Virus record (IMG/VR): IMGVR_UViG_3300031673_000004
Span: 1 to 64,000 of that record
Direction: 5' to 3' (one strand)
From: a virus
DNA: 64,000 bases
Shown: in pieces, positions 21,757 to 58,896 of the stretch
Numbering within the stretch: position 1 is the first letter of the stretch
Layout: every line of letters begins with the position of its first letter
Position numbers and translations under genes: made by a program
Notes under the pieces: model-generated
What the model was told of the DNA's origin: nothing
Database searches by the model: none
Seen by the model: the letters and a program-made list of their open reading frames with translations, nothing else

Positions 21757-21793
21757 ATCTTACATCGATATGCATCCTAATATTAAACTACCG
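21757..21793 (-). promoter_or_regulatory. Putative late promoter (CGGTAGTTTAA plus TAAGAT)
   Basis: Recurring bipartite motif. Confidence 0.6.
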
Positions 21794-28467: not shown

Positions 28468-28528
28468 AGCAATTTTTCCTTTCCCAAATATTATACTCAG
28501 AAAAAAATTAATTTGGAAGAAAATTTTT

Positions 28529-31214: not shown

Positions 31215-32375
31215 ATGAGCATACCTGAAAAGTCAAAGATAATATTATTCGTTCAAGGTGGTGCAGGTGATGTTTTAAGCCATACGCCTGCTATTCGCTA
31301 TTTTAAACATAAGTACCCTAATGATGAAATCATCGTTCTTTCTACCTATTCACAGCTTTTAGAGCACAATCCTAATATAGACAAACTAATTTCACTCAAA
31401 GATCCAAAAGATTTTTACAATGAACATGTATTAGGAAAAAACATTAGATTTTTCAAAAAGCATTTTGTGTACGACGGAATTATGGATGAACCAGCGATGG
31501 ACTGTAAATGCCTTCCAGAGTTTATATGTAAGATGTACGACGCTGAATACGATGAGCAGCCCCTTGATTATAAGCTTACAGATTATGAATTACGAGCGGC
31601 ACAAACATTCATAGGACAATATAAGTTCCTCAATCGCCCAATAGTTCTACTGCACTGTACTGGAGCGATTCCTTCAGATGGAGCATTCAACAAAACAAAT
31701 AGTCTCAAAGATCTAAACATTGAATTAGCGAAACAGCTAGTAGCAAAATATAAAGAAAAAATATTATTTATTCATATTGGTTTGGAAGGGGAGCCAAAGG
31801 TAGACGGTGCTATAGATGCATTAGGAATGCAAATGCGAGAGGCTATTGCACTTTTGCCATTGGCTGATAGCTACATCCTTATAGAAAGTCTATTCGCACA
31901 CTGTACAAATGCATTAGGAACTAAGGGAATTGTTGTATTCCAGAACACTGATCCCAAGTTCTTCGGTTACTCTAATAATTATAATGTTTCATGGACTGGT
32001 GGATGTAAAGATTGGCCATGTAATCGCCCAGTAGGTGCACTACTAGATTTGCATCCAGGCTATAGAAATCCGAAAACACGGCAACAACTCTTATGGGAAT
32101 GCCCTAATCAAGTCTGCGCACAAATTCCGCTAGAGAATTTGGAAAAGGCACTATTGGACTCTTTAGCAGAAAAAAAGAAAAGAGGAAATCCTGCATTAGA
32201 CGCAGCCCGTGCAGGCACTCCCCCACAACAAAAATTTAGCGTGGCAGAATCTCCTTCATATGGAAAAACAATTGCAGGAGATACGAATATTGCAACTATA
32301 CCTAAAGCAGACTTAGTAGAAGAAATAGAAGTGAAACCTGTAAAGAAGAAGAAGAAAAAGGCAAAGAGAAAATAA
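31215..32375 (+). CDS. Glycosyltransferase, GT9 (heptosyltransferase)-like
   Basis: GGAGDVLSHTPAIRYFKHKYP...ESLFAHCTNALG. Confidence 0.75.
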   Translation: MSIPEKSKIILFVQGGAGDVLSHTPAIRYFKHKYPNDEIIVLSTYSQLLEHNPNIDKLISLKDPKDFYNEHVLGKNIRFFKKHFVYDGIMDEPAMDCKCLPEFICKMYDAEYDEQPLDYKLTDYELRAAQTFIGQYKFLNRPIVLLHCTGAIPSDGAFNKTNSLKDLNIELAKQLVAKYKEKILFIHIGLEGEPKVDGAIDALGMQMREAIALLPLADSYILIESLFAHCTNALGTKGIVVFQNTDPKFFGYSNNYNVSWTGGCKDWPCNRPVGALLDLHPGYRNPKTRQQLLWECPNQVCAQIPLENLEKALLDSLAEKKKRGNPALDAARAGTPPQQKFSVAESPSYGKTIAGDTNIATIPKADLVEEIEVKPVKKKKKKAKRK

Positions 32376-32399
32376 CCGTTATCTTTGAAAGGAATTATC

Positions 32400-33050
32400 A
32401 TGAGAATAGAACAACCATCCATAAAAGTCCTTTTTCATTATCCTATAACTGATGACGGAGAAATACTACAACCTGAAGTCTTTCTTGAAATGGTAGGTAG
32501 AACGTGTTATAAGTCTGAAGGTAAGATTACAGAAACAAGTGCTAGGGATTTCATTAGAATGTTGAATGATCGCGGACACGCAGCGATGTTGGAACACTGT
32601 GTAGCTTCTGCACATATTGTATGTAATCGTGGGCTTACACATGAACTTGTTAGGCATAGAATAGCGTCGTATGGTCAGGAAAGCACACGGTTTTGTAATT
32701 ATTCCAAAGATCAGTTTGATCATACTATCGGTGTTATTATGCCTCCATTCGCTACTACTGATGGCAGGGCTGAAATTGAATGGCGACAGGCTATGGTTGA
32801 CGCTGAGAAGCATTATTTTAATCTTATTGGGATAGGCGAACCAGCACAAATTGCAAGGGGTGTACTCCCGATAGATCTCAAAACGGAAATATGGATTACG
32901 ACTAATCTGCGTGAATGGCAGCATATCTTTAGTTTGCGTTGTTCGAATAAAGCACACCCACAAATCAGGCAGACATTCCGTAGCGCACTTCCCATTTTTG
33001 CTAAAAATGTTCCATCGATGTTTTCAAAACTGAATTCAAAGTTTTCTTAG
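32400..33050 (+). CDS. thyX: Flavin-dependent thymidylate synthase
   Basis: GHAAMLEH, THELVRHRIASYGQESTR, ARGVLP, NLREW, AHPQIR. Confidence 0.95.
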   Translation: MRIEQPSIKVLFHYPITDDGEILQPEVFLEMVGRTCYKSEGKITETSARDFIRMLNDRGHAAMLEHCVASAHIVCNRGLTHELVRHRIASYGQESTRFCNYSKDQFDHTIGVIMPPFATTDGRAEIEWRQAMVDAEKHYFNLIGIGEPAQIARGVLPIDLKTEIWITTNLREWQHIFSLRCSNKAHPQIRQTFRSALPIFAKNVPSMFSKLNSKFS

Positions 33051-33058
33051 GGGGCATT

Positions 33059-34315
33059 ATGAAAAAAGGAAACAATGTAGATCATCCTGAGCACTATAAT
33101 AAACACCCTGCTGGGATTGAATGTATTGATGTAATCGAGCACTTTGGTTGTAATATAGCCAATGCTATGAAGTATCTATGGCGAGCAGGGCTTAAACCAA
33201 GTTCCGATTTAATTGAAGATTTAGAAAAGGCCAATTGGTACATTTTGCGTGAAATCGCACGGAAGAAAAAATATAAGGGAGTAAAAAAAATGACTGAACC
33301 CACAAAACTTATATGCTATAAAGGCGACCGTAGTGCCTGTTGGCTGTACCGCCTTCACGCTCCCATGGTGCACCTTGCCCGAAATAACCCAAAAGGATTT
33401 CACATTACAGTAGCAGGATCTATAGGAGAAGACCAAGTAGGAAAGTATGATTTAGCAATCCTCCAGCGGCAGTATAAACTGGATGTGTTTCAATATATTC
33501 TCCAGATGAAAAAAAAAGGAACAAAATTGGTCTATGAAATAGATGACGACTTATTTCATGTGCCCAAATGGAATCCGTCATATCAAGTTCTAGGAAAGAA
33601 AAAAGTACAGGATGGTATTAAATATTTCGTATCTGAAGTTGATGCAATGTTTGTAACAACCGAAGCATTAAAATCAGTCTACGAAAATTATTGCAAACAT
33701 ATTTATGTGTTACCAAATTCGATTGACTTTGATTTTATATTTCCGCTAGATAATCCTAGAGAAAATACATCTAAACCAGTAGTCTGTTGGCAGGGATCTA
33801 TGACGCATGAACATGATCTTGCTGTTGCCAAAAGAGAATTTATAAAACTAGCAAAGGATAAAGATATATTATTTAAAATGTGGTGTGGGTTGGATCGGGT
33901 AACCAGAAAACCAAATTTTGATATACCGGGGGCACAAACAATTCAACTTACCCCTTTCGAAGGCTTTTTTCAGATGTTCGGTCAATTAGGGGTTTATATT
34001 GGCTTAGCCCCCTTAGCAGCAACACAATTCAATAGAAGTAAATCAAACTTGAAGTTTTTGGAGTATACAGTGTATAATGCAGTCACTGTGGCATCTGACT
34101 TTGGACCATATAAAGATACCATAGAAGATGGCGTCACAGGAATTTTGGTTGCAAATAACAATGATTGGTATAATAAGGTAAAGGAACTATTGGACAATGA
34201 AGATTTATATACTTCTATATTGACAAATGCAAAGAAATTGGTAGCTGAAAAATTTGATATAAACAAGAATTACATTTACTGGGAACAGGCAATCAAACAA
34301 ATTTTAGGAGAGTGA
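33059..34315 (+). CDS. DUF3310 (T7 gp1.7 nucleotide kinase-like) domain in frame with a GT-B glycosyltransferase
   Basis: VDHPEHY...IECIDVI...KYLWRAG..EDLEKA, then YEIDDDL...APL...FNRSKSNLKFLEY; internal RBS and ATG at 33290. Confidence 0.8.
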   Translation: MKKGNNVDHPEHYNKHPAGIECIDVIEHFGCNIANAMKYLWRAGLKPSSDLIEDLEKANWYILREIARKKKYKGVKKMTEPTKLICYKGDRSACWLYRLHAPMVHLARNNPKGFHITVAGSIGEDQVGKYDLAILQRQYKLDVFQYILQMKKKGTKLVYEIDDDLFHVPKWNPSYQVLGKKKVQDGIKYFVSEVDAMFVTTEALKSVYENYCKHIYVLPNSIDFDFIFPLDNPRENTSKPVVCWQGSMTHEHDLAVAKREFIKLAKDKDILFKMWCGLDRVTRKPNFDIPGAQTIQLTPFEGFFQMFGQLGVYIGLAPLAATQFNRSKSNLKFLEYTVYNAVTVASDFGPYKDTIEDGVTGILVANNNDWYNKVKELLDNEDLYTSILTNAKKLVAEKFDINKNYIYWEQAIKQILGE

Positions 34316-34316
34316 T

Positions 34317-34745
34317 ATGTCACCAACAGTCTATTTCGTTTTTATAACTTGTCAGTTCGGTATCTGGCTAGGATGGGTAGAGGAGTCTGAATATAACATA
34401 TGGAAAACTGAGAAATGTGCCTTGACGCTGCATGATGTTCGCGGCTACATTTTTCAGCCCGTACCAGGATCCAACGATAGAATGGCTGTAACAATTGGCC
34501 CGCCATATCCTGGGGATACAAAGCAGCTAGAGATCGCATTGTTCCCACATTCAGTAGAAATCATCGGAGAAATTCGTACTGAAAAGGGAGTTAAAATATG
34601 CACAGGAAGTCCTACCCTCTACACTCGCTATACAGAAGCCTTGGATAAGTGGCGTGCAGCATTGTCAAACATTCACACACCTACCCCCTCTGATATTGCA
34701 AATTTATCAAAGATGAAGAATGTGACAAAGTTCCCCGGAAGATAA
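34317..34745 (+). CDS. Hypothetical protein
   Basis: 142 aa ORF with AGGAG RBS. Confidence 0.6.
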   Translation: MSPTVYFVFITCQFGIWLGWVEESEYNIWKTEKCALTLHDVRGYIFQPVPGSNDRMAVTIGPPYPGDTKQLEIALFPHSVEIIGEIRTEKGVKICTGSPTLYTRYTEALDKWRAALSNIHTPTPSDIANLSKMKNVTKFPGR

Positions 34746-34746
34746 C

Positions 34747-35106
34747 ATGAAAGCAAAAAAAGAAAGTTTTATACTAGGAAACCTGGATAAAAAGACCAGG
34801 TTAGATGCTACACAGCATGCGTTTGTAATTAAAGAGAAAACTAAAGCGACTGATGGGACAATTAGCTGGACTAGTAAATATTATTATTCAGAGATTGGTG
34901 ACGCAATTCGTGGATATGCACGCCATGTACTGCGTCGTCCTAGCATGGCCAAACATTTAGATGGTGACATAAAGACTTTGATAGAACTTATCAGCAAACT
35001 CGAAAAAACAATTAAAAAGATGGGTGATAAATTAAATTTACAATTCGACAGGCAACTGCAAGATCCTGTAGAATCTCATCTATTTAATTCTGAGGATTCA
35101 AAATGA
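34747..35106 (+). CDS. Hypothetical protein
   Basis: 119 aa ORF, tightly packed. Confidence 0.6.
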   Translation: MKAKKESFILGNLDKKTRLDATQHAFVIKEKTKATDGTISWTSKYYYSEIGDAIRGYARHVLRRPSMAKHLDGDIKTLIELISKLEKTIKKMGDKLNLQFDRQLQDPVESHLFNSEDSK

Positions 35107-35726
35107 ATCATAAAGTAAATACTGCAGATTACTACATTGGGAAGATAACTAAGAAATATATCATTGATTTTCTCAATGCTTTGTTATTTTCTAATTCAGT
35201 TCTTTGGGATGGTAACGACCAATTTAATGAACTGCCAATATTTAAGACTACTGTAGAAGATGGAGTTCATAAGGAACAACGCGGTGCACTGTTTGTAAAC
35301 AGTAAAAGCTCCAAAGCACTGCGGTTATCTATAATAGCCATAGAGACTACTATTCAGCAAGTGTGCTATAGACTTTGCGGATTGAACGAACCACTCAGGA
35401 TCGATGAGGGTAAACGACTATATTACCCGTTAGATGGGATCGTTATTGATGTATCTATTGCAGATCTAAATTTAGGCAGCAGTGAACCTGCTTCCTACTC
35501 GTTCTCAGATAATACGAACAACACAGGAAAACTTAACAATAAAAAATTATTTACTATTCTTAATTATCTGCTTACTTCAACATTTATTACAATAGAAGAT
35601 CCTGAAATTTTTGCGGATTTGACAGAAGATCATTTGAGTTCACCTCCTATCCCTTCCGATCCACATTTTAGGCCAGTATTCGGAGTCCGAGATGTCATCG
35701 ATACCGTTGATAATAGCAGGCATTGA
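35103..35726 (+). CDS. Hypothetical protein
   Basis: 207 aa ORF with ATGA overlap. Confidence 0.6.
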   Translation: MNHKVNTADYYIGKITKKYIIDFLNALLFSNSVLWDGNDQFNELPIFKTTVEDGVHKEQRGALFVNSKSSKALRLSIIAIETTIQQVCYRLCGLNEPLRIDEGKRLYYPLDGIVIDVSIADLNLGSSEPASYSFSDNTNNTGKLNNKKLFTILNYLLTSTFITIEDPEIFADLTEDHLSSPPIPSDPHFRPVFGVRDVIDTVDNSRH

Positions 35727-35749
35727 CCTGTAGTGGTAAAAATAGAATA

Positions 35750-37324
35750 ATGAAAAAAAAGACACAAAAAATTCTTTTAGGAAAACATTTTGGAAAATTA
35801 GTTGTTATAAGGGCTAGTAAAAAAATAAAAAGAGGAGATATTGTCTGGGAGTGTTTATGTGAGTGTGGTAATACAATTATGCTTCCCACGTATCGATTAC
35901 TATACAAAAGTGGAACACGGAGTTGTGGGTGCTTAGTGGGAAGTAAAAGAAAAGAATTAACAGGTAAGCGTTTTGGGAAATTAGTCGCCCTCGAACCAAC
36001 AAGTATAGTAAAAGGTAAAAGTATTGTTTGGCGGTGTATCTGTGACTGTGGAAACGAAGTACTTGTAAAAAGTGGCCATTTACTTAGTAGGGGACAAAAA
36101 GGTACGAACAGTTGTGGATGTTTAAAAGGAAATAAACTTAATTTAATAGGAAAAAAATTTGGGGAACTTACTGTTCTCCGGGAAACCCCACAACGGAGGA
36201 CAACTTCTACAGAATGGGAATGTTCTTGTAGTTGTGGAGAGTATATTACCGTTCCTGCTACTTATCTAGTAAGAAAAAGTAAAAAACCGAAACATTGTGG
36301 CTGTTTAAATAAAAAGTTTGGTGAAGATGCTGCCTTTAATGTATTGTATCAGTCATATAAAAAAAGAGCAGAAAAAAATGGATTAATATTTACATTAACT
36401 AGAAAGGAATTTAGAACATTAACAAAACAACCTTGTGTTTATTGCGCTTCTAAACCATTTCAAGTTCAGTATATCGGAGGAAACAATCGAAAAAGACATG
36501 AATATATTTACAGTGGAATTGATCGTATAGATAGTTCTAAGGGTTATACTTTAGATAATTGCAGTCCTTGTTGTAAGATCTGCAATTTTGCTAAAAGTAA
36601 TATGAATGTAGGAGAGTTTTTACTTCATATAACTAAAATAATAAAAAATAATAAAAAAATAATTTTAACATTACAGAATAAACACATAATTTCTACTACA
36701 AATGCCATAAATATTACAAAACATATTAAGAAGATAAATAATAAGGAGAATACTATGAAACATTTTAAAAGTACTTATGTAGGATTAGATTTAAGTCTAA
36801 CTAATACGGGTATCTGTGTATTAGGAACTAATAATAGAATTATACATTTAGATGTAATAGCTACAAAAAAATTAAGAGGGGGTGATAGATTAATTTTCAT
36901 AAAAGAAGCTATCAAAAATATTCTTAATAAATATGAAGATACAATATTAAATATTTTTGTGGAAGGATACTCATATGGAAGCAGAGGTCGCGCCGTGTTT
37001 AATATCGGGGAACTTGGAGGTGTTATCTCTGTTATGTTATTAGAAAATAAACATAGCTACTTTATTGTGCCACCCAAAACATTAAAACTGTTTATATGCA
37101 ATTCAGGGAATGCCCCAAAAAGTATTATGTTTGAACAAGTCTATCGAAAATATAAAATTGGTTCAGAACATCTTTTACACGGAAATGACAATGCGTTAGA
37201 TGCTTTTTGTTTGGCTAAATTTGGGGAAAGTTATACGCAATGGATGTTAGGAAATATTAATTATTTAAATTATGAATTAAGATCATTCAAAAAGATTAAA
37301 GACAGAATAACTTTCCAAGGATGA
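35750..37324 (+). CDS. ruvC: HNH-type homing endonuclease in frame with a RuvC-like Holliday junction resolvase
   Basis: Three GKxFGxL...WxCxCxCG repeats and IDRIDSSKGYTLDNCSPCCKICN; then VGLDLSLTNTG, VEGYS, GELGG, DNALDA from an internal ATG at 36755 with AAGGAG RBS. Confidence 0.8.
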   Translation: MKKKTQKILLGKHFGKLVVIRASKKIKRGDIVWECLCECGNTIMLPTYRLLYKSGTRSCGCLVGSKRKELTGKRFGKLVALEPTSIVKGKSIVWRCICDCGNEVLVKSGHLLSRGQKGTNSCGCLKGNKLNLIGKKFGELTVLRETPQRRTTSTEWECSCSCGEYITVPATYLVRKSKKPKHCGCLNKKFGEDAAFNVLYQSYKKRAEKNGLIFTLTRKEFRTLTKQPCVYCASKPFQVQYIGGNNRKRHEYIYSGIDRIDSSKGYTLDNCSPCCKICNFAKSNMNVGEFLLHITKIIKNNKKIILTLQNKHIISTTNAINITKHIKKINNKENTMKHFKSTYVGLDLSLTNTGICVLGTNNRIIHLDVIATKKLRGGDRLIFIKEAIKNILNKYEDTILNIFVEGYSYGSRGRAVFNIGELGGVISVMLLENKHSYFIVPPKTLKLFICNSGNAPKSIMFEQVYRKYKIGSEHLLHGNDNALDAFCLAKFGESYTQWMLGNINYLNYELRSFKKIKDRITFQG

Positions 37325-37400
37325 GATTGCTACACTCAAAGGAATGAACCCTAAATGCACACTGTAAATTAACGTAAAGTAGGTATAAGAAAATATTCTC

Positions 37401-38036
37401 ATGTTAGCTAATCTTGTAAATATAATAGTCGTAGGGTATGGACCAAAGGTAAAACATTTGGATAAAGCGTGCTTAAATAGTATACTTTTTAATACTAGCC
37501 ACCCTTATATTATTACATATTTTGACAACTATGCTTCTGGAATGTCTTTAACCGCAGTTTGGAATAAATTAGTTAAGTTCAGTGATACAAAATTTATTTG
37601 TTTATTGAATAATGACACGCGAGTAACAGAAAATTGGCTAGGAAAACTTGTTGATACATTAACCACCGATGAGCGTATTGGATTTGTTGGTCCATCTGGT
37701 AATTGCCACTCGGTACAATCTTCAGTTGTATCTGAGGAACACGCGCAAAAGCACATTGGAAAAGTAGTTATGTTAAAAGATCCACCCAGCGGTTTTTGTT
37801 TATTGTTCAGAAAAAAAATATGGGATGAAATAAACGGATTTAATGAACAGTATAATCTTTATGGAAGCGAAAGCGATTTTTGTGATCGTGCTACAAAAGT
37901 TGGGTATAAGTATGCTTGGAGAAAAGACGTATTTATACACCATTTAGGCGAAAGTAGCTCAAAAGCCTATGCAATTGATACGATAAAAGAAAGAGAAAAA
38001 GCAAAAAAATTGTATTGGGAATCCCGTGATAAATAA
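37401..38036 (+). CDS. GT2 family glycosyltransferase
   Basis: CLLNNDT, GFCLLFRK, ESDFCDRA, FIHHLG. Confidence 0.88.
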   Translation: MLANLVNIIVVGYGPKVKHLDKACLNSILFNTSHPYIITYFDNYASGMSLTAVWNKLVKFSDTKFICLLNNDTRVTENWLGKLVDTLTTDERIGFVGPSGNCHSVQSSVVSEEHAQKHIGKVVMLKDPPSGFCLLFRKKIWDEINGFNEQYNLYGSESDFCDRATKVGYKYAWRKDVFIHHLGESSSKAYAIDTIKEREKAKKLYWESRDK

Positions 38037-41958: not shown

Positions 41959-41983
41959 CTACAATTGGTACGAGAGGTTAATA

Positions 41984-44630: not shown

Positions 44631-44632
44631 CT

Positions 44633-45244: not shown

Positions 45245-45253
45245 TATACGTCG

Positions 45254-45925: not shown

Positions 45926-45935
45926 AGGAGATAGT

Positions 45936-46619: not shown

Positions 46620-46628
46620 GTAACACCT

Positions 46629-48850: not shown

Positions 48851-48951
48851 ATATGTGCTGCACTAGAAGTATTTGCTAACTGTTGGTGTGGGAAACCTCT
48901 TATCTATTTTGGTAAATAAATTGCTTGGCGCTTAACACAAGGATACAAACC

Positions 48952-49734: not shown

Positions 49735-50801
49735 CAAAGATTTTGCACATAGGTGGTGTGAACTCCCCCCACGTAACTGGGATTTTGGAACAAATTAAAC
49801 AATATACTAACTTTGAGCAGTGTGTAATAAGTTATCCAACTACAATAAAAGATTATGATAAAAAACTTTTTATGGGTATTTCAACATATTACTATAACTA
49901 TCCATTATTTTTCAAAAATAAACCAATTAATGCAGTAGAAAGTAAAAAACTAGAGAAATTTATTGCTAAGGTTATCGCAGCGGAACATCCAGATATAATT
50001 CATGGACACTACTTATCCAAGTGTGCTATGCCTATGTACTACGCAATAGTGTACAGCAACAAGCCAGGAATAGTTGTTCCTTGGTCTATATGGGATATAG
50101 CACAGAACTCACATATGTTTAGTAGAATTAAAGCATGTCTAAATGCTTGTTCTTACGTAATGTGCAACAATACAAAATTTTTGAATGTACTATTAGATGC
50201 ATATAGTCAAAGTAGATCCAAGGGAATATTTTCGTTTCCCCCTGTGCGGTTATACCTATATAAGAACGCTGTACCTAATACGCATGTACCCCGATTGCTA
50301 ATTACACGTACACATTATCAAGCTGCATTCTTTAGTATACTTCCTAAAATAATAAAAATGTTTCCTAACATAGAAATAACTTCTTTATCTCCAGGAAATA
50401 TAGTTCAGTTGTCAAAAAAATTAGGTATATATAATAAAATAACGTTTTTACCAAGTATGCTTACTCAGGAGGACTTTGCTAAAACGGTACAAAACCACAA
50501 TATTGTTAGATCTATGGCACCAGATCATGGAACATCTAGTACAACTATTCAAGCCGCCTACTCTGGGGCGGTTGTTTTGTCACATAAAAGTTCTTGGTCT
50601 TACCTAAAAAATAATGTTAATATTATTGAATGTGATTTAACTGTAGAAGATATTCAAAATAAACTTATTTATGCAATAAAAAATTTGAAAACTCTTTGCC
50701 CTATGTTTAAGAAAAATAACGCTTTCCTTAAAGGTTGGGATGCAGACGTTACTTGGAAAAATTTACTTACAGCATATAGTACGATGCTAAAAGGGAGATA
50801 A
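49731..50801 (+). CDS. Divergent GT-B (GT4-like) glycosyltransferase, paralog 3
   Basis: KILHIGGVNSPHV, EHPDIIHGH, QAAYSG. Confidence 0.65.
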   Translation: MTKILHIGGVNSPHVTGILEQIKQYTNFEQCVISYPTTIKDYDKKLFMGISTYYYNYPLFFKNKPINAVESKKLEKFIAKVIAAEHPDIIHGHYLSKCAMPMYYAIVYSNKPGIVVPWSIWDIAQNSHMFSRIKACLNACSYVMCNNTKFLNVLLDAYSQSRSKGIFSFPPVRLYLYKNAVPNTHVPRLLITRTHYQAAFFSILPKIIKMFPNIEITSLSPGNIVQLSKKLGIYNKITFLPSMLTQEDFAKTVQNHNIVRSMAPDHGTSSTTIQAAYSGAVVLSHKSSWSYLKNNVNIIECDLTVEDIQNKLIYAIKNLKTLCPMFKKNNAFLKGWDADVTWKNLLTAYSTMLKGR

Positions 50802-50802
50802 T

Positions 50803-51831
50803 ATGAAAACTATTTTGATCACAGGTGGCGCAGGCTTCATTGGTTCCAATTTTGTAAAATATATTATGAATAAGTATCCAAAATACAAAATTTTGATATT
50901 GGATGCATTAACTTATGCTGGTTCAGTAGATAATCTTCCACAGCTACTTATAGGAAATGCGTCTGATCGTGGTGAATTTTGGTATGGTAACATTACAAAC
51001 GCTAATTTAGTAGACACCTTAGTACGTAGATCTACTATTATTGTTCATTTTGCAGCGGAGACACATGTAACAAGATCTATTTACGATAATACTTTATTCT
51101 TTCATACAGATGTCTTAGGTACTCAAACCATTGCTAATGCCGTATGTAAGCACAAAAACACTATTGAGCGTTTTATCCATATTTCTACATCGGAAGTTTA
51201 TGGAACAGCACTAACAGAATCAATGGATGAAAATCACCCATTGAACCCGAGCAGCCCATATGCAGCAGCAAAAGTTGGAGCAGATAGGTTGGTTTATTCT
51301 TATTGGAATACATATAAAATTCCTGCAATTATTATTCGACCATTTAACAATTATGGACCAAGACAGCATCTTGAAAAAGTTATTCCTCGTTTTATTACCA
51401 GTAGTATACTAAAAGAACCTATGCGTATTCATGGAGATGGATCTGCGAAAAGAGACTTTGTTTATGTTGAAGATGTATGTAGTGCACTTGATGTTGTTAT
51501 GCACGCTGATCTTAACAAAGTTATCGGAGAGGTATTTAATGTTGGAAGCGGAAAAGATATTTCTATTGGAGATATTGCTAAGACTATAACAAGGGTAATG
51601 CAGAGCAGTAGTAGCACAACTATAGTGGATAGACCAGGACAAGTTATTAGACATACGGCAAATATTAATAAAATACAAAACGTTTTAGGATGGAAACCTG
51701 AAACATCGTGGGTTGACGGCCTCAATAAAACAATTGCCTGGTATAATGCTAATAAGCGTCTTTGGGAGAAACAACTATGGTTGCGTGATATCCCCATTGT
51801 TACTGCCGAGGGAGTAAAAGCATGGCATTAA
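50803..51831 (+). CDS. rmlB: dTDP-glucose 4,6-dehydratase-like NDP-sugar dehydratase
   Basis: ITGGAGFIGSNF, DALTYAG, HFAAETHV, STSEVYG, PYAAAK, NNYGP. Confidence 0.88.
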   Translation: MKTILITGGAGFIGSNFVKYIMNKYPKYKILILDALTYAGSVDNLPQLLIGNASDRGEFWYGNITNANLVDTLVRRSTIIVHFAAETHVTRSIYDNTLFFHTDVLGTQTIANAVCKHKNTIERFIHISTSEVYGTALTESMDENHPLNPSSPYAAAKVGADRLVYSYWNTYKIPAIIIRPFNNYGPRQHLEKVIPRFITSSILKEPMRIHGDGSAKRDFVYVEDVCSALDVVMHADLNKVIGEVFNVGSGKDISIGDIAKTITRVMQSSSSTTIVDRPGQVIRHTANINKIQNVLGWKPETSWVDGLNKTIAWYNANKRLWEKQLWLRDIPIVTAEGVKAWH

Positions 51832-52014
51832 AATCTTTATTGAGACTAATACTTAGTGATTTATCTCGATATAAAGAAACTTATCACATCAGACAAGGTA
51901 GTAAGAATTTTTTCTTGATATGCTTAGAATCAGTTTTATTTAAATATCGTACAAGACATTCCACCTTCTTCGCGTATTTTATCTGCAGATATTGGAATAA
52001 TTCATGAAGATTGA
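51822..52014 (+). pseudogene. Internally deleted CysE/WcaB-like acetyltransferase remnant
   Basis: N-terminus ILSDLSRY...LESVLFK is joined out of frame to NIVQDIPPSSRIL (51943-52014), which resembles a hexapeptide-acetyltransferase C-terminus. Confidence 0.45.
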
Positions 52015-53131
52015 ATTCTACAAACATAACATTGGACTTAGAGAAAAGATAAGCATATGGAAATGCTTAAATTCTACTTTTTTAACTACAGGAGAACATG
52101 TTGTCAAGTTTGAAAGGGATCTTGCAAGGTACTTAACTGTGCAACAGGGCATTGGAGTAACAAGTTGCACTGCTGCGTTACATTTGTCCCTATTAGCTTT
52201 AGGTATTGGTTCTGGAGATGAAGTTATTACCACACCAATGACATTTGCAGCAACTGCATTAGCAATTATACAATGCGGTGCAACCCCTGTTTTTGTTGAT
52301 GTTGAAAAAACAACTGGCAATATGGATACTAATTTAATAAAAAAAGCGATCACAGATAAAACAAAAGCAATAGTTCCAGTACATTTATATGGCCAAATGT
52401 GCAACATGCTAGAAATAAAAAGAATAGCAGACAAGCACAACTTGTTTATTATAGAAGATGCGGCGCACGCATTAGAAAGTTATCGGGACTTTATTAAGCC
52501 TGGGCAAGTATCAACTACTGCATGTTTCAGTTTTTATACTACTAAGAGCATAACATGTGGTGAGGGTGGTGCAATTGTTACAAATTCAGATAGTCTTGCA
52601 AAGAAGATTAGATTACTTAGAACGCATGGATTATCACAAGATGCTGCAAATAGGTATGAAAAATTTAAGCATTGGGATATTGTAGATTTTGGTTGGAAAT
52701 ATAATATGAGCAATATTCAAGCCAGCTTACTTATTCCACAATTGAAAAACGTAGAAAATTATTGGAAAAAAAGAGAAAAATGCTTTAATATATATGTGCA
52801 GGAACTACAGGGCATAGGGGGCGTTCGCATACTCAGTAAAGTACCGAATGCGAAGCATGGGTGTCATTTATTTACTGTACTTGTCGCACCGGACAAGCGG
52901 GATTTGATTGTTAAAAAGTTGCAGAGTGTTGGGATTAACACAACAGTTAATTACAGACCAGTGCATTTATTAAAAAAATTTAGAGAAGTATATGGATATG
53001 ATTGTGGAGATTTTCCAAACGCTGAAGAAATTGGTGCATCAACGATTTCTTTGCCGTTATATCCAAAACTAAAAAATAAAGAAACGCTGTATGTAATAAA
53101 GACTGTTAAAAATATTGTTGGAAGTGTGTAA
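52004..53131 (+). CDS. DegT/DnrJ/EryC1/StrS sugar aminotransferase
   Basis: SCTAALHL, PVHLYG, IEDAAHA, FSFYTTKSITCGEGG, SLPLYP. Confidence 0.95.
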   Translation: MKIEFYKHNIGLREKISIWKCLNSTFLTTGEHVVKFERDLARYLTVQQGIGVTSCTAALHLSLLALGIGSGDEVITTPMTFAATALAIIQCGATPVFVDVEKTTGNMDTNLIKKAITDKTKAIVPVHLYGQMCNMLEIKRIADKHNLFIIEDAAHALESYRDFIKPGQVSTTACFSFYTTKSITCGEGGAIVTNSDSLAKKIRLLRTHGLSQDAANRYEKFKHWDIVDFGWKYNMSNIQASLLIPQLKNVENYWKKREKCFNIYVQELQGIGGVRILSKVPNAKHGCHLFTVLVAPDKRDLIVKKLQSVGINTTVNYRPVHLLKKFREVYGYDCGDFPNAEEIGASTISLPLYPKLKNKETLYVIKTVKNIVGSV

Positions 53132-53149
53132 CTGTAGTAGGGTAATTAA

Positions 53150-54211
53150 ATGAATAACATTTTTCTGATTGTTGGAGCACGTCCTAACTTTATAAAAGCT
53201 GCGGCAATACTTGTAGCGGCAAAAAAGCAGAACGTGGTCATTGACCTAATTCATACAGGCCAACATTATGACGCTACTATGAGTGATATCTTCTTTCAGG
53301 AGTTACATATTGACCCGCCATTGGTTAACTTAGGGATCGCTACTTTAGCTACTTATGGGGAATTTTTATACAAGTGTAAAACGAGATTTATAGAACTGTT
53401 TTCAGTATATAAACCGAAGATTGTAATAGTAGTTGGTGATGTCATAAGTTCGTTAGCTGCAGCATTGGCCGCAAATATCACTAAAACGACGTTAATTCAT
53501 GTTGAAGCTGGTTTAAGGTCATTTGATTATACGATGCCGGAAGAACTTAACAGAATACTAATAGATTCTGTAAGCGATTTTTTCTTTGTCACAGAGCCTG
53601 CTGGAGTTGAAAATCTGAAAAAAGAGGGCAAAGAGCATAATGTATACCTTGTTGGTAACACAATGATTGATACGCTATATGCTAACCTAGCTGCAATAAA
53701 CCATAGAAAATACTGCAGAGAATTACATTTAAAAGAAGATGAATACGTTGTTATGACTATTCACAGACCAAGTAATGTTGGGAGTAATTTAATAGACATT
53801 CTCAAGAACATTAACAAAATAGGCTGTGATCTTCCGATAATTTTTCCGGTTCATCCAAAGATTGGGAGTAACTTAGCGCATTTGAACTTGAAAAATGTTA
53901 AATTGATATCGCCTTTGGGTTATTTTGAGTTTTTATCGTTAGTATTAGATTGCAAATTTGTAATAACGGATTCAGGGGGATTGCAGGAGGAAACAAGCGC
54001 ACTCGGTATTCCCTGCTTGACATTAAGAAATAATACGGAAAGACCTATTACTATTGAAAGAGGAACAAATACACTAGTTGGACAAGATTATCCTGCCTTA
54101 TTGCGTGCAGTTAATAATATTATGGCTAACGAATGTGTAAAACTGGCAGAACTTATTTGGGATGGCAAGGCTGGTAGTAGAATAATTAGTACTCTAAGAA
54201 CCATACTATGA
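53150..54211 (+). CDS. wecB: UDP-N-acetylglucosamine 2-epimerase (non-hydrolysing)
   Basis: GARPNFIK, HTGQHYD, HVEAGLRS, PEELNR, TDSGGLQEE, TERP. Confidence 0.95.
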   Translation: MNNIFLIVGARPNFIKAAAILVAAKKQNVVIDLIHTGQHYDATMSDIFFQELHIDPPLVNLGIATLATYGEFLYKCKTRFIELFSVYKPKIVIVVGDVISSLAAALAANITKTTLIHVEAGLRSFDYTMPEELNRILIDSVSDFFFVTEPAGVENLKKEGKEHNVYLVGNTMIDTLYANLAAINHRKYCRELHLKEDEYVVMTIHRPSNVGSNLIDILKNINKIGCDLPIIFPVHPKIGSNLAHLNLKNVKLISPLGYFEFLSLVLDCKFVITDSGGLQEETSALGIPCLTLRNNTERPITIERGTNTLVGQDYPALLRAVNNIMANECVKLAELIWDGKAGSRIISTLRTIL

Positions 54212-54504
54212 AGAGACTCCATGAAAATAATAATTTAGGTCCACGCGCTCGCATACTAAATTTACAATGGAAAAACTCAAAAACTAAACGTGGGAATAAG
54301 AAAAAGAAAGTACAATCTCACCCAAAAAGACAAAAGAAAGATATAAATAAGCATGATCCTAGAACTAAATCTATAAACTACTCAAACGTAGAACGTAAAT
54401 CAATTAATGAAGGATTATGGCAACAACCTATACAGTTAATGAAAACAGCAATCGAAACACCAGACATTATAATCTACGAAGTAGAATATTTGGATAATGA
54501 ATGA
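54208..54504 (+). CDS. Basic hypothetical protein
   Basis: 98 aa ORF coupled to both neighbours by ATGA overlaps. Confidence 0.5.
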   Translation: MKRLHENNNLGPRARILNLQWKNSKTKRGNKKKKVQSHPKRQKKDINKHDPRTKSINYSNVERKSINEGLWQQPIQLMKTAIETPDIIIYEVEYLDNE

Positions 54505-55256
54505 AACCTAAAGTTTCCATACTAGTTCTCACGTATAATCGTGTTGACCTATCTAGTCGATATATTCCATTATTGCTCGCACATGCGGGTAATGTCCCAC
54601 TAGAAATGCTTATTTGGGACAATGGATCAGACGATGGATCCTATGATTGGGCGTCTGCATTTGGACGAGCAGATTGCAGGGTATCCAAGGTAGTTGGGCA
54701 TGCCAGAAATATTGGCATGGAAGCGTTTAATTACCTTGCAAAAGAGGCAAAAGGGGAGTACATCATCAAGGTAGACGATGATATCGATGTACCGCTATGC
54801 TACGCAGAACGCCTTGTGGGGGCATACGAGTGGGTAGGTGAAGAACAATTGCTTTTTTTGGGTTGGGATATGCCTTGGGCCAGGGGGCCTAAATCAGGGG
54901 GTGATACCTTCGCAACACGGTCAGGAATGAATTTATATCGAGGCACCCGTGGTAAAATTGTCAAAGTAAATGATAAAGACTCAGTTCTTATTCATTATGA
55001 CGCTTCAGAATTCATGATAAACGGAGTATGTAGATTGTCCCCAAGAAACAGATTTTTAGAAATTGGTGGTCACCCAAAGGGGATAATATATGGTGTCGAT
55101 AAACATATAAGTGCCCGTGCTGCAGCACATGGCTATTGGATTGGGTACTTATCTTCTCAGGATCTAGTGTATCATCGAGGGGCAGATGACAAACCCGAGT
55201 ATAGGGCAATGAAAGACAATGAACTACGCAGGGTGAATAGCCCTAAAGATGTATAA
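54501..55256 (+). CDS. GT2 family glycosyltransferase
   Basis: VSILVLTYNR, WDNGSDDGS, KVDDD. Confidence 0.88.
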   Translation: MKPKVSILVLTYNRVDLSSRYIPLLLAHAGNVPLEMLIWDNGSDDGSYDWASAFGRADCRVSKVVGHARNIGMEAFNYLAKEAKGEYIIKVDDDIDVPLCYAERLVGAYEWVGEEQLLFLGWDMPWARGPKSGGDTFATRSGMNLYRGTRGKIVKVNDKDSVLIHYDASEFMINGVCRLSPRNRFLEIGGHPKGIIYGVDKHISARAAAHGYWIGYLSSQDLVYHRGADDKPEYRAMKDNELRRVNSPKDV

Positions 55257-56085
55257 AATGCATAGAGACGGATATAAACCAAAAGTGAGTATTATTATCC
55301 CTGTTCACAATGAGTCAGCAAAGACAGTTCGCTGTTTGGCAAGTATTCGTGCTAATACTAAACTTCCATACGAAATAGTCTGGGTAGATAATAACTCCAA
55401 TGATGATAATTTTGGATTGATAAGAAGGCAGGCCACTAGACCTAATGTACATACAAAACTGATAAAATTGAAACAAAATGTAGGTTTTGTAAAAGCAACA
55501 AATATTGGAATAAAAGAGGCAGAATCGAGCAGTAAGTACATTATTCTTTTGAACAATGATACTGAAGTGAGTAGATATTGGGCTACAAAATTAGTAACAC
55601 CACTGCGAAAAGACGCAACTGTTGGTGCAGTAGGACCAATTACTCAGAGTAGCATATCTTGGCAAGAAGCCACCAATCTCAACCGAAGATGGGATTTGAA
55701 GATTCCAAAGTTTACAAAAGGTGGGGATAACACAAAAAATATCCACAAATATAACGAGATAATATCCCGTAAATTCAAAGATAAATATATGGATATTGGT
55801 GCATTACCTTTGTCATTCTTTTGTGTTGCACTAAGGAAAGAAACATTTGATCAAATTGGATTGTTAGATGAAGATTTTGGTATTGGACTGGGGGATGATG
55901 ATGAATATTGTTTTAGGTTACGTGCGCATAATCTAACGTTGGTTTTAAGTTTGGAAACATTTGTATACCACCACCACAGAACAACTTTCAAAGCGCTAAA
56001 ATTACCTGTAGATTCTATTAGAAGAAAGAACATACGGGTACTCAGAGAAAAAAAGAAAGCGGTCATGCGAGAAGTAAATGGGTAA
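55249..56085 (+). CDS. GT2 family glycosyltransferase
   Basis: VSIIIPVHN, GFVKATNIG, LLNNDT, GLGDDDEYC. Confidence 0.9.
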   Translation: MYKMHRDGYKPKVSIIIPVHNESAKTVRCLASIRANTKLPYEIVWVDNNSNDDNFGLIRRQATRPNVHTKLIKLKQNVGFVKATNIGIKEAESSSKYIILLNNDTEVSRYWATKLVTPLRKDATVGAVGPITQSSISWQEATNLNRRWDLKIPKFTKGGDNTKNIHKYNEIISRKFKDKYMDIGALPLSFFCVALRKETFDQIGLLDEDFGIGLGDDDEYCFRLRAHNLTLVLSLETFVYHHHRTTFKALKLPVDSIRRKNIRVLREKKKAVMREVNG

Positions 56086-56884
56086 TCCAGTCATAAGCAT
56101 TGTAGTTCCGGTCCTAGATCAGCCGGATATGACTGTAAAATGTTTTCATTCTATTCGTACAGTTACTAAACTGCCTTTCGAGGTCATCTGGATAGACAAT
56201 GCATCCATAAAAGACAGTCGGAAAATAATAGCTAGGCAGGCTGATTTATTCAAGGGTAAATGTATCCTGATAAAAAACGATGAGAATAAAGGATTTATCA
56301 AAGCAACCAATCAAGGAATTCAAGCTGCTCGCGGTGAATATATCATTCTGCTAAATAATGATACAGAGGTATTTCCTGATTGGGAAAGCAATCTGATCAA
56401 ACCTCTGTATCATCATGCTAATGTTGGTGTAGTTGGACCTATTACCCAAAGCAAGCTATCGTGGCAAACAAACAAATATTTGAATTATCGTTGGGAAGTT
56501 GGAATTCCCCCGTACAATGATTCTATCAAATTGCATTACTGGATGAAATTAAAAAAAATGCACAAAGATAAATACTTAGATGTCACGGGAATGCCCATTT
56601 CATTTTTCTGTGCTGCGATGCACCGATCACTATTTGATAAAATAGGAGCGCTCTGTGAAGAAATGAGCATAGGTTTAGGAGACGATGACGAGTTCTGCAT
56701 GCGCATGAGGGCTCATGGATATAAACAATGGCTAAGTCTAGGAACATTTGTTTACCATAATCACCGAACAACCTTCAAAGCACTCAACCTGGGAGTGGAG
56801 TCTCTCCAGAGGTACAATATGTGCATATTCAAAAAGAAAGAACGAGAATTACGTAAAAATCCACCAGAACATAGTTTTCAGTAG
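56078..56884 (+). CDS. GT2 family glycosyltransferase (paralog of the upstream gene)
   Basis: GFIKATNQG, LLNNDT, GLGDDDEFC, HRTTFKAL. Confidence 0.9.
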   Translation: MGNPVISIVVPVLDQPDMTVKCFHSIRTVTKLPFEVIWIDNASIKDSRKIIARQADLFKGKCILIKNDENKGFIKATNQGIQAARGEYIILLNNDTEVFPDWESNLIKPLYHHANVGVVGPITQSKLSWQTNKYLNYRWEVGIPPYNDSIKLHYWMKLKKMHKDKYLDVTGMPISFFCAAMHRSLFDKIGALCEEMSIGLGDDDEFCMRMRAHGYKQWLSLGTFVYHNHRTTFKALNLGVESLQRYNMCIFKKKERELRKNPPEHSFQ

Positions 56885-56898
56885 AGTATAATACTCGT

Positions 56899-58889: not shown

Positions 58890-58896
58890 GGTAACT

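Follow-up and report, generated by a model that had tools for sequence, protein, structure and literature searches.

A putative glycan-building locus with conserved ends and a hypervariable middle in an uncultured lineage of large phages

We have found that large phages of an uncultured lineage from soil and water carry a swappable middle section enclosed by conserved genes for soluble, sugar-adding enzymes. This arrangement of conserved ends and hypervariable middle in a phage glycan locus is newly found here. The locus occupies positions 31215-56884 of the window, that is, the whole 64,000-nucleotide stretch analysed, and we consider that it most likely encodes a cytoplasmic, strain-variable glycan assembly line.

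Results

Gene content

The locus comprises 29 ORFs, all on the + strand, which mostly overlap or lie within 25 nt of each other; wider gaps occur only three times (76, 74 and 172 nt), so the co-orientation and tight coupling given in a preliminary description hold. Also listed there were 14 glycosyltransferases (GTs), five methyltransferases and three sugar-nucleotide enzymes (RmlB-like dehydratase, DegT aminotransferase, WecB epimerase). Pfam, NCBIfam, paralogy and structure confirmed this content, with weak support for one of the methyltransferases. The other seven ORFs are non-glycan genes: ThyX 32385, unknowns 34317, 34747, 35103 and 54208, RuvC-like 35723 and EndoVII 38026. The features are as follows.

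27760..28545, - strand: phage metallopeptidase, left phage flank, divergent from the locus (PF18894, 107 bits)
31215..32375, + strand: GT9-like GT, conserved 5' end (PF01075, fold comparison)
32385..33050, + strand: ThyX, window-specific non-glycan insertion (PF02511, 151 bits)
33059..34315, + strand: GT-B with N-terminal DUF3310, conserved 5' end (Glycos_transf_1, 28.5 bits)
34317..37324, + strand: four conserved non-GT genes, namely unknowns of 142 aa, 119 aa (phrog_154) and 207 aa, and RuvC-like
37401..38036, + strand: short GT2-type GT, GT2short (sub-threshold GT2 matches)
38026..39309, + strand: Endonuclease VII ORF (homing-type nuclease), window-specific insertion (PF02945, 85 bits, 2 stretches)
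39291..41287, + strand: two GT4 enzymes, GT4a and GT4b (Glycos_transf_1, 61.5 and 74.1 bits)
41284..54504, + strand: variable cassette, differing in content among relatives (Pfam, NCBIfam, paralogy, Atlas)
Cassette GTs, + strand: GT2a 41984; CgeB-like 42718 and 43644; GT-B paralogues 46629, 47726 and 49731
Cassette methyltransferases, + strand: 41284; probable 44633; TylF 45254 and 45891; Methyltransf_31 48925
Cassette sugar enzymes, + strand: RmlB-like 50803, DegT 52004, WecB 53150; also unknown 54208
54501..56884, + strand: GT2b, GT2c and GT2d, conserved 3' end abutting UvsW (PF00535; 37.3, 87.1 and 98.2 bits)
56899..58368, + strand: UvsW-like helicase, right phage flank (ResIII, UvsW_N)

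GT family matches (Pfam, E<=0.01) were graded against the curated cut-offs. They were obtained for 13 of the 29 ORFs, with ten above the cut-off (33059, 39291, 40364, 41984, 42718, 43644, 47726, 54501, 55249 and 56078) and three below it (31215, GT9 at 21.0 versus 22 bits; 37401; 46629). GT 49731, negative by Pfam, was recognised as a GT through its paralogues 46629 (blastp 9e-65) and 47726 (8e-45). Pfam and paralogy together reproduce exactly the breakdown proposed earlier: one GT9-like, five GT2, two GT4, two CgeB-like, three divergent GT-B and one DUF3310-GT. GT2short is related to GT2c (blastp 3.5e-15) and measures 208-213 aa in relatives, and GT4b is 51-56% identical in G005, G007, G008 and G010. 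The DUF3310 of the GT-B at 33059 spans residues 7-62; since homologues are shorter (334-360 aa) and their alignments (335-347 aa) start at about query residue 80, the GT-B of the relatives is without the DUF3310 part.

The AF2 model of the GT9-like protein (pLDDT 83) matched GT9 3tov with a VIA Z of 24.1, TibC and WaaF with 21.2 and WaaC with 19.4, and the next fold reached 11.7. We retain the GT9-like assignment because these fold matches back the sub-cut-off PF01075 score. Homologues form 87 clusters, metagenomic without exception. Cysteines C264, C269, C296 and C301 are invariant; this cluster at first seemed TibC-like, but 5 of 8 ordinary bacterial GT9 genes share it, and we therefore do not take it as a pointer to a protein acceptor.

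Among the methyltransferases, Pfam matched two TylF and Methyltransf_31, Atlas features (0.98) and structure (TM 0.93) place 41284 with the class I SAM methyltransferases, and 44633 had weak PDB methyltransferase matches only (E 0.02-0.09). WecB exceeded its NCBIfam cut-off (293.9 versus 210), and the RmlB-like enzyme (322.7 versus 365) and DegT (330.9 versus 423.5) fell below theirs and are family-level matches only. These enzymes support the O-methyl and amino-sugar chemistry suggested previously.

ThyX has no homologue at the same site in relatives, G004 carrying a copy elsewhere (24233), and the EndoVII ORF is missing from the corresponding site. The four non-GT genes keep their order in G003, G007, G008 and G010; the phrog_154 match of the 119-aa protein has E 3.6e-8 and the RuvC match E 1.2e-6. 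The conserved 207-aa protein (model pLDDT 88) is without a fold match, its weak top matches being lipid-transfer proteins (Z 5.1 or less, not significant).

Conserved ends and exchanged middle

A survey of related phages, which the preliminary description had called for, showed that the locus recurs in G003, G004, G007, G008 and G010 with conserved ends and a hypervariable middle. The GT9-like protein and GT-B form one end; GT2b and GT2c lie at the other and adjoin UvsW in all six loci with both ends (the window and these five relatives). GT2short, GT4a and GT4b are often present too. The distance from GT9 to UvsW ranges over 8-26 kb: 25.7 kb in the window, 20 kb in G008, 16 kb in G004, 14.3 kb in G007, about 14 kb in G003 and 8.2 kb in G010. 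Cassette ORFs without a blastp match to window ORFs number 6 of 9 in G007, 9 of 15 in G008 and 6 of 8 in G003. Of these ORFs without a counterpart in the window, ten of ten that were scanned had Pfam matches, namely to NeuB, CTP_transf_3, PS_pyruv_trans, sulfotransferase, radical SAM and FkbM. The window's set of CgeB, TylF, GT-B paralogue, RmlB and DegT is shared by the distant G004 (TerL 47% identical) but not by the closer G003 (TerL 69% identical), which argues for cassette exchange.

Phage origin and contiguity

The locus is flanked by TerL, portal and MCP on the left and by UvsW, DnaB and primase on the right, in agreement with the earlier assignment to phage DNA. We give next to no credence to an assembly artefact in which a bacterial polysaccharide locus was misjoined to phage DNA. 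On the one hand, the genes look bacterial and the GC of the locus (0.31-0.39) is slightly under that of the virion arm (0.36-0.48). On the other hand, the replication genes to the right are equal in GC (0.36-0.385), read depth in X1 is even at about 17x, and the gene order is matched in five independent IMG/VR contigs, one with terminal repeats (G003, G004, G007, G008, G010); in G003, G004 and G007 the metallopeptidase also adjoins the GT9-like gene. Contigs from three further soil metagenomes (runs X4, X5 and X6) bridge the GT2d/UvsW junction (56884/56899) with 0 differences. Taken together, the contigs across the junctions are X1 records 1 and 8, X4 record 15, X5 record 24 and X6 record 32. 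Synteny and bridging contigs thus answer the earlier concern about contiguity: the assembly is not chimeric, and we rejected the misassembly reading.

Membrane proteins and export genes

Using the 19-residue Kyte-Doolittle mean, a crude scan, we found a strong hydrophobic segment in none of the 29 ORFs (highest mean <=1.99); means of at least 1.6 were confined to three globular enzymes, namely the GT9-like protein, DegT and WecB. Neither Pfam nor hydrophobicity pointed to a priming phosphoglycosyltransferase, a flippase, a polymerase, a ligase or an ABC permease in the window. In the complete 184-kb relative G004 we found no polytopic membrane protein: none of 271 ORFs had more than 3 hydrophobic segments, and two (131 and 171 aa) had 3. 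The claim of a soluble enzyme set without export genes thus stands in the window and in G004.

Discussion

In the mechanism that we propose, soluble or peripheral enzymes only would build a complex glycan in the host cytoplasm. Phage enzymes would convert host nucleotide-sugars, the GTs would lengthen the glycan one step at a time on an acceptor facing the cytoplasm, and methyl, pyruvyl or sulfate groups may cap it. The cassette, exchanged among phages, codes for donor-sugar synthesis and decoration: in the window, a 4-keto-6-deoxy/amino-sugar route (RmlB-like, DegT), UDP-ManNAc (WecB), seven further GTs and up to five methyltransferases; in relatives, nonulosonic acid (NeuB and cytidylyltransferase), pyruvyl, sulfo and other methyl groups.

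The preferred acceptor would be a virion surface protein, and we hold a virion protein to be the acceptor only tentatively, at a little under an even chance. CgeB is linked to the spore crust, and the CgeB-like GTs point weakly to a protein or particle acceptor, as do a Maf/MptE-like match beside NeuB in G007 (27 bits, below the Pfam cut-off of 34.6) and the Megavirinae precedent. The preliminary description had proposed capsid or tail proteins, or DNA, as the soluble acceptor, and neither proposal was borne out. For the virion, conservation was not seen for the PT-rich (Thr-rich) tail of ORF 5798, which among seven homologues is present in the window and partly in G001. The locus belongs to the replication arm, where it runs in the same direction as UvsW, DnaB and primase. 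Of the putative late-promoter boxes, 7 fall on the virion strand; the locus is devoid of them apart from 1 inside RmlB, against 1.77 expected by chance, and in relatives it is likewise devoid of them. For DNA, the known hydroxylated-base enzymes were not found in relatives.

Remodelling of the host envelope is possible but rather unlikely. Phage GTs would modify lipid-linked host intermediates (lipid A-core or undecaprenyl-linked sugars) at the inner membrane face, and host flippases or ABC exporters would bring the altered glycan to the surface, blocking superinfection or changing receptors. GT9, GT4, GT2, WecB, RmlB and DegT are typical LPS/capsule enzymes, the GT9-like fold is closest to LPS heptosyltransferase relatives, and LPS and O-antigen synthesis, too, relies as a rule on GTs that are peripheral and soluble. 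The non-late position, the resemblance of conserved ends and variable middle to O-antigen loci, spanin-like genes (24347, 24766) suggestive of a diderm host, and the cyanophage 'LPS' clusters, as far as PMC7824862 describes them, point the same way. However, the export and priming functions sought in the window and polytopic proteins in G004 are absent, and a swappable cassette would demand host exporters tolerant of very different glycans. Moreover, we know of no lytic phage that rebuilds host glycan with soluble GTs. It seems improbable that the locus serves takeover or competition through a different soluble product, such as a glycosylated small molecule or glycolipid, or by glycosylating proteins of the host cytoplasm. 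Natural-product pathways, too, contain methyltransferases (of the TylF family and others), radical SAM enzymes and sulfotransferases, the 207-aa protein is without a known fold beyond its non-significant lipid-transfer matches, and for another cyanophage cluster, the second, Iyer et al. weigh secondary metabolism as an interpretation (available text of PMC7824862); yet aglycone-forming enzymes (PKS, NRPS, terpene synthases) are absent among the 29 ORFs, and so many GTs would rather be expected for an oligo- or polysaccharide.

DNA hypermodification, in which some or all GTs would glycosylate a hydroxylated base for restriction evasion, as in T-even and 5hmC/5hoC glycan pathways, is very improbable. 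In every relative the locus lies amid replication/recombination genes (RuvC-like, phrog_154, UvsW, DnaB). The portions available of two studies (Pyle et al., 10.1101/2023.12.21.572611; Lee et al. 2026, PMC13326640) describe clusters that are likewise near replication genes, sometimes with sugar-nucleotide genes, and whose GT-A and GT-B enzymes derive from LPS and teichoic-acid enzymes; the former reports mono- to tri-saccharides, including heptose, on 5hmC and the latter poly-arabinosyl 5hoC. Those clusters, however, add 1-3 sugars and have as neighbour either a C5 methylase with 5mYOX or a ThyA homologue. Neither a C5 methylase nor a ThyA homologue was found in complete G004; across five relatives, ThyA was found in none (control positive in 10 of 14 genomes) and the C5 methylase in one, in the variable region of G005. 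Tet_JBP was found in none of the five, its control being likewise silent. The window's DNA methylase is of N6/N4 type, T4-type DNA GTs are not among the Pfam matches of the locus ORFs, and 8-14 GTs with pyruvyl, sulfo and NeuB chemistry go far beyond DNA glycans in the literature examined.

Returning to the proposed cytoplasmic assembly line, we consider its relation to known systems. 'Undescribed system', the earlier wording, is overstated: the available part of Iyer et al. 2021 (PMC7824862) already covers a glycan cluster of 15 genes from cyanophage P-SSM2, along with smaller ones from further jumbo phages, and interprets them as modifying the host surface. Such cyanophage 'LPS/capsular polysaccharide' clusters resemble our locus in that they belong to a large lytic phage, hold numerous paralogous GTs from several families together with NAD-dependent dehydratases/epimerases and O-methyltransferases, vary in content among related phages and have a predicted function. 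Unlike them, our locus has a fixed position between virion arm and UvsW, conserved ends, no sugar kinase or nucleotidyltransferase and more GTs (14), and comes from soil rather than marine samples. The core GTs are not related in sequence to those of cyanophages, as tblastn searches with the GT9-like protein, GT4b and GT2c gave no cyanophage; the RmlB-like enzyme alone has Synechococcus-phage homologues (59 of 232 records). Conserved flanks, a hypervariable centre, GT2/GT4/GT9, RmlB, DegT, WecB and methyl and pyruvyl capping recall bacterial O-antigen/capsule loci, but a priming transferase, Wzx, Wzy, Wzz and an ABC exporter are missing. In mycobacteriophages, soluble phage GTs decorate capsid and tail-tube subunits (Freeman et al. 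2023, as cited in the accessible part of PMC12619734); that system has, according to an announcement, about two GTs adjoining structural genes, whereas ours has 8-14 in the replication arm, and among the ORF 5798 homologues we found no conserved Ser/Thr-rich C-terminal extension. The uncultured large moraphages (Perez-Hernandez et al. 2025, PMC12619734) carry four core GT orthogroups, heat-shock genes in all, and PolB, for which trees were built. In contrast, HSP70 and DNA_pol_B were each absent from five of five relatives, including complete G004 (controls positive in 12 and 5 of 14 genomes), so we regard our phages as a separate lineage.

The giant-virus parallel drawn earlier is apt. As the available text of Notaro et al. 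2022 (PMC10117803) describes, Megavirinae glycosylation clusters hold 6-33 genes, are clade-specific, and combine virus-encoded nucleotide-sugar pathways for bacterial-type amino sugars with GTs that work without the host secretory route. Megavirinae, however, are eukaryotic giant viruses with known acceptors, the fibril proteins.

In summary, large glycan clusters are already known from cyanophages and giant viruses. The conserved block of soluble enzymes around a swappable middle indicates that these phages probably produce a sugar coat that varies between strains. If a virion protein is the acceptor, this would give phage 'serotypes', as with giant-virus fibrils and chlorovirus capsids.

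Architecture of the phage contig and the glycan locus

The window is a single phage contig with two divergent arms, and its large terminase (TerL) shares about 30% identity with jumbo-phage terminases, for example those of PaBG and Rctr197k. The main features are listed below.

1-29000, minus strand: arm with terminase, portal, head, amidase, DNA N6/N4 methylase and phage metallopeptidase genes
21788-23773, minus strand: large terminase (TerL)
16103-17926, minus strand: portal
8200-9348, minus strand: major head protein
from 30003, plus strand: arm with, 3' of the glycan locus, UvsW-like helicase, IstB-like loader, DnaB-like helicase, primase zinc finger and UDG genes

The glycan locus (31215-56884) comprises 29 ORFs, all on the plus strand. 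Most of them overlap or lie at most 25 nt apart, and only three inter-ORF gaps are larger (76, 74 and 172 nt), which agrees with the preliminary description of co-oriented and tightly coupled genes. Seven of the 29 are non-glycan ORFs, namely ThyX, three unknowns, a RuvC-like ORF, an endonuclease VII ORF and a 98-aa unknown. Scans for sigma-70 promoters and terminators gave matches at chance level only.

An ORF with an RRXRR domain (PF14239, 114.6 bits) at 30003-31184 separates the divergent control region from the GT9-like gene (ORF 31215). None of the five relatives compared has a homologue, and no ORF of equal size stands before the GT9-like gene in the related contigs G003, G004 and G007; the ORF looks like a mobile insertion specific to the window. 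At 32385-34315, ThyX and DUF3310 lie between the GT9-like and GT-B (ORF 33059) genes in the window phage only, and DUF3310 is fused in frame to the GT-B, so that the product has 418 aa, compared with 334-360 aa in relatives. This fusion may be a by-product of an insertion and not a functional domain pairing; among the papers listed for DUF3310, none gave it a function. The RuvC-like ORF (35723-37324) encodes 533 aa with the RuvC domain at residues 353-480, and its counterparts in G003, G007 and G010 have 184-189 aa. The additional N-terminal stretch, about 350 aa long, matches no Pfam family and falls in the lowest-GC bin of the window (0.308). The endonuclease VII ORF (38026-39309) contains two Pfam stretches and is absent at the same position in all relatives. 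Since the short GT2 gene (GT2short, ORF 37401) is full length in relatives (208-213 aa), the endonuclease VII insertion did not truncate it.

On the minus strand, 24347-25125 holds a spanin-like pair, consisting of a 119-aa protein with an N-terminal TM segment and a coiled coil and a 139-aa protein whose N-terminus is Cys-rich and lipobox-like and whose C-terminus carries a TM segment. This pair (24347 and 24766) suggests a diderm host.

Phage origin and contiguity of the locus

IMG/VR contigs were retrieved by the terminase and by a GT9-like profile, and ten records were compared using tblastn and blastp. Both ends of the locus were found on five contigs (G003, G004, G007, G008 and G010), and all five show a common order. 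On the left, the metallopeptidase or another left flank is followed by the GT9-like gene, the GT-B gene, three small unknowns, the RuvC-like gene and more GTs. On the right, the GT2 genes GT2b and GT2c (ORFs 54501 and 55249) are followed by UvsW, a 177-aa unknown, the IstB-like gene and DnaB. The relative G004 (183,765 bp) has direct terminal repeats and is rated 100% complete. Window positions 50000-59000 were present in six soil-metagenome runs. Contigs of the likely source run (X1) tile 38000-57999 at an even depth of about 17x and break at two places only, at a 94-bp TylF repeat and near 50500-50720, and the junction between GT2d (ORF 56078) and UvsW is bridged by contigs of three further samples with 0 differences. 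Because of the synteny in five contigs, including the complete G004, together with the even depth and the bridged junction, we rejected a chimeric assembly; the contiguity of the cluster with the phage genes, which the preliminary description had asked to be confirmed, was borne out.

The 94-bp patch is common to both TylF genes (45654-45747 and 46342-46435). It forms a separate Logan contig with a depth of 30.4 against 17 at the site of the X1 assembly break, as would be expected of an exact repeat present in two copies.

Conserved ends and an exchangeable cassette

Across relatives, the GT9-like and GT-B genes show 43-75% identity, and GT2b and GT2c, which adjoin UvsW, show 39-60%. GT2short and the two GT4 genes, GT4a and GT4b (ORFs 39291 and 40364), occur in most relatives; G003 is without GT4b and G004 is without all three. 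The middle of the locus (41284-54504), which we call the cassette, is hypervariable between these conserved flanks, the arrangement that characterizes surface-polysaccharide loci. The span from GT9 to UvsW is longest in the window, at 25.7 kb, and measures 20 (G008), 16 (G004), 14.3 (G007), about 14 (G003) and 8.2 kb (G010) in the relatives; G010 has seven GTs and no sugar-nucleotide genes. By blastp, 6 of 9 cassette ORFs in G007, 9 of 15 in G008 and 6 of 8 in G003 had no match to any window ORF, and glycan-type Pfam matches were found in all ten such ORFs scanned. The G007 cassette encodes NeuB (191 bits), a cytidylyltransferase, a polysaccharide pyruvyl transferase, a methyltransferase and a Maf/MptE-like domain that scores below the cut-off (27 against 34.6 bits). 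That of G008 encodes a sulfotransferase, a radical SAM enzyme, a pyruvyl transferase and methyltransferases of the FkbM and Methyltransf_24 families.

On the one hand, G004, whose TerL is 47% identical, has the CgeB, TylF, GT-B-paralogue, RmlB and DegT set of the window at 35-63% identity. On the other hand, G003, whose TerL is 69% identical, is without this set. Judged from these identities, cassette kinship does not track phage kinship, so the locus amounts to an exchangeable cassette in a fixed slot, in the manner of O-antigen loci.

Low-depth contigs (about 2x) join window positions 41941 to 45643 in X1 and 43896 to 50672 in another soil run (X4), and are too thin to count; they may represent co-occurring strains with other cassette versions in the same soils.

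Enzymes of the locus

In Pfam, 13 of the 29 ORFs matched a GT family with E<=0.01, ten over the curated cut-off and three under it. ORF 49731 has no Pfam match and is a paralogue of ORFs 46629 (blastp 9e-65) and 47726 (8e-45). With this paralogue, the count agrees exactly with the 14 GTs of the preliminary description in number and in family split (one GT9-like, five GT2-type, two GT4, two CgeB-like, three divergent GT-B and one DUF3310-GT). The GT9-like protein was the weakest case, with 21.0 bits to PF01075 against a gathering cut-off of 22, over profile positions 172-229 only. A profile of 33 homologues matched 3tov at E 0.0018. The AlphaFold model built from these homologues (pLDDT 83) superposed on 3tov with a Z of 24.1 (rmsd 3.2, 277 aligned) and also resembled TibC (21.2), WaaF (21.2) and WaaC (19.4), against 11.7 for the next unrelated GT-B. 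The predicted fold thus confirmed a GT-B enzyme nearest to GT9 structures, as had been proposed.

Four cysteines are invariant in the GT9-like family and fall, by alignment offset, near the iron finger of TibC (Cys339, 342, 358 and 370). This finger helps TibC to grip its protein substrate (PMC4358343). The C-terminal part alone gave chance-level matches only against PDB sequences. A CxxC...C...C tail was present in five of eight bacterial GT9 genes read from four bacterial genomes; therefore, we regard the cluster as a generic GT9 feature that carries no information on the acceptor, and dropped it as a sign of a protein acceptor. It does not discriminate as to an ADP-heptose donor or a lipid A-Kdo (or autotransporter) acceptor.

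Five methyltransferases had been proposed, of which four stood: two of the TylF family and one Methyltransf_31 are clear in Pfam, and Atlas identifies ORF 41284, which has no sequence match in the PDB, as a class I SAM methyltransferase (features 0.98; structure TM 0.93). The fifth, ORF 44633, has weak PDB matches to methyltransferases (E 0.02-0.09). Among the proposed sugar-nucleotide enzymes, WecB (ORF 53150) exceeded the NCBIfam equivalog cut-off, and the RmlB-like dehydratase (ORF 50803) and the DegT aminotransferase (ORF 52004) held at family level only. The nearest cellular relatives of WecB among the matches listed (80 loci) are from Desulfobacterales (46-49% identity) and Bacteroidota (41-43%). 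Naming a host from this kinship was dropped, the nearest being only 46-49% identical.

A 207-aa protein (35103-35726) is conserved in the locus across the lineage and falls in 60 clusters, all metagenomic. Its structure is modelled with confidence (pLDDT 88, pTM 0.86). Atlas assigned the protein to no named family, and neither a PDB profile search (0 matches) nor Foldseek against PDB and BFVD at E<=0.001 found a relative. In a wide VIA search, the top rows were lipid-transfer-type proteins, the best Z of 5.1 being not significant. Complex prediction of this protein with the GT9-like protein scored 0.00 (mark 0.32), which speaks neither for nor against a contact.

The GT9-like protein occurs in 87 protein clusters, all metagenomic, on contigs that, across this set and the 207-aa set, reach 249 kb. 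No close homologue of the GT9-like protein, DUF3310-GT, GT2c or GT4b was found by tblastn in 50,697 deposited phage records, and megablast of the locus gave no match. The GT-B part of DUF3310-GT has weak matches (26-28%) to GTs of rV5/phi92-like coliphages and some Streptomyces phages. Going by these searches, the lineage is well populated but uncultured.

Export machinery

The locus had been described as lacking a flippase, polymerase, exporter, priming enzyme or membrane protein, and this held for all 29 ORFs. None of them matched a Pfam family of priming phosphoglycosyltransferases, flippases, polymerases or ABC permeases, and the hydropathy scan found no convincing transmembrane segment in any, the top 19-residue value being 1.99 in WecB. 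Export genes elsewhere in the genome were considered in the complete G004. None of its 271 ORFs of at least 70 aa has more than three hydrophobic segments, so none is polytopic; two ORFs, of 131 and 171 aa, have three. The scan is crude, but proteins of the Wzx, Wzy, WecA or WbaP type would be conspicuous in it.

The acceptor of the glycan

Glycan clusters encoded by phages have been on record since the cyanophage genomes appeared, with no established target known to us. For the present locus, we tentatively prefer a virion protein as the acceptor, at slightly below an even chance. The locus would act as an assembly line of soluble enzymes throughout, adding capping groups and differing in content from clade to clade, like giant-virus fibril clusters. 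Glycosylation of flagellin and of spore surfaces is similar. As pointers to a virion acceptor, the CgeB-like GTs and the Maf-like match are no more than suggestive. Among the candidate proteins, ORF 5798 has a PT-rich tail in the window and partly in G001, of seven homologues, so this tail is, on sequence comparison, not a conserved acceptor. ORF 9393 is a Thr-rich Ig-like protein (phrog_807) without a PT-rich tail, and no conserved Ser/Thr-rich tail was found in the homologues of either ORF.

Expression of the locus is also relevant here. A putative late box, CRGDAGTTWA, has 8 matches in the window against 1.77 expected, a number reached by 0 of 100 shuffles. Seven are on the minus strand (370, 2476, 7572, 11928, 12912, 21784 and 25757), all upstream of virion-arm genes, and the box recurs upstream of the homologous virion genes, and only these, in G001, G002, G003 and G007. 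The sole plus-strand copy is inside RmlB, with none in the intergenic positions of the glycan arm. Given this distribution, the locus is probably expressed together with the replication genes, which is compatible with virion glycosylation but does not favour it.

A host-envelope glycan as the acceptor is somewhat unlikely in our estimation, although it fits the enzyme families, the non-late position of the locus and a host that is likely diderm, given the spanin-like 24347 and 24766, and cyanophage clusters have been read in this way (PMC7824862). However, the locus provides neither a primer transferase nor an exporter, and the exporters of the host would need to tolerate widely differing glycans. 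We give a small chance to other soluble products.

DNA is a very improbable acceptor. Genes for replication and recombination are interspersed with those of the locus, and published phage DNA glycan pathways involve LPS-like GT-A/GT-B enzymes and up to tri-saccharides, heptose included (bioRxiv 10.1101/2023.12.21.572611); poly-arabinose on 5hoC of phage DNA has also been described (PMC13326640). These pathways require a ThyA homologue, or a C5 methylase with a TET-like oxygenase (5mYOX). Of these defining partner enzymes, ThyA (PF00303) was found in none of the five relatives, including the complete G004 (control positive in 10 of 14 genomes), and the C5 methylase (PF00145) was found in only one of the five (G005) and not in the complete G004. 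Tet_JBP (PF12851) had no match in the five relatives, and its control was also without a match. Within the window, the analysis showed only ThyX and the N6/N4 methylase. Moreover, pyruvyl, sulfate and nonulosonic chemistry with 8-14 GTs far exceeds the known DNA glycans. The C5 DNA methylase of G005 (G005:C1:55135-55647, 109.9 bits) lies inside the variable glycan region and is the sole hint of a DNA-directed branch in the lineage.

Returning to the virion protein as the acceptor, we propose, more guardedly, that the virions of these phages may bear a coat of their own making, a long and capped heteroglycan produced wholly in the cytoplasm. The middle of the locus would then be an exchangeable serotype cassette, by which related phages would differ in surface sugar, with methylated amino-sugars in the window and nonulosonic acid, pyruvate or sulfate in relatives.

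Relation to known systems and implications

The locus combines nucleotide-sugar enzymes and multiple GTs in one clade-variable cluster, as giant-virus loci do. It works like the Megavirinae fibril clusters of 6-33 genes, whose acceptor is known, in line with the giant-virus scale first suggested (PMC10117803); the comparison shows alikeness of working and not homology. Cyanophage glycan clusters also work alike (PMC7824862), but their core GTs have no kinship to those of the window. Mycobacteriophage virion glycosylation reportedly involves far fewer GTs, which adjoin the structural genes, unlike the present locus, which lies on the opposite strand in the replication arm. Moraphages, which have four core GT orthogroups (PMC12619734), are another lineage; HSP70 and PolB were found in none of the five relatives, with positive controls. 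In the open-access literature searched, we found neither this lineage nor a locus of such architecture described. The lineage could be listed in the data of Pyle et al. (about 25,000 contigs with GTs), in the orthogroup tables for moraphages or in the supplementary data of Iyer et al. Three aspects seem to be new. One is the scale, with 14 GTs; another is that the slot is fixed and its ends are conserved around a cassette that can be exchanged; the third is that a complete relative genome is without an exporter, a ThyA homologue or a C5 DNA methylase.

With a fixed slot, two conserved ends and a cassette that swaps chemistry, the lineage offers a clean case for expression and comparative work. 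If the product were on the host, it would represent a route by which a lytic phage rewrites envelope glycans without a membrane enzyme of its own. If it is on virions, as we tentatively prefer, these would be phages with glycan serotypes, a counterpart of O-antigen diversity and of giant-virus fibril glycans, and the glycan would bear on adsorption, environmental stability, grazing and immune recognition.
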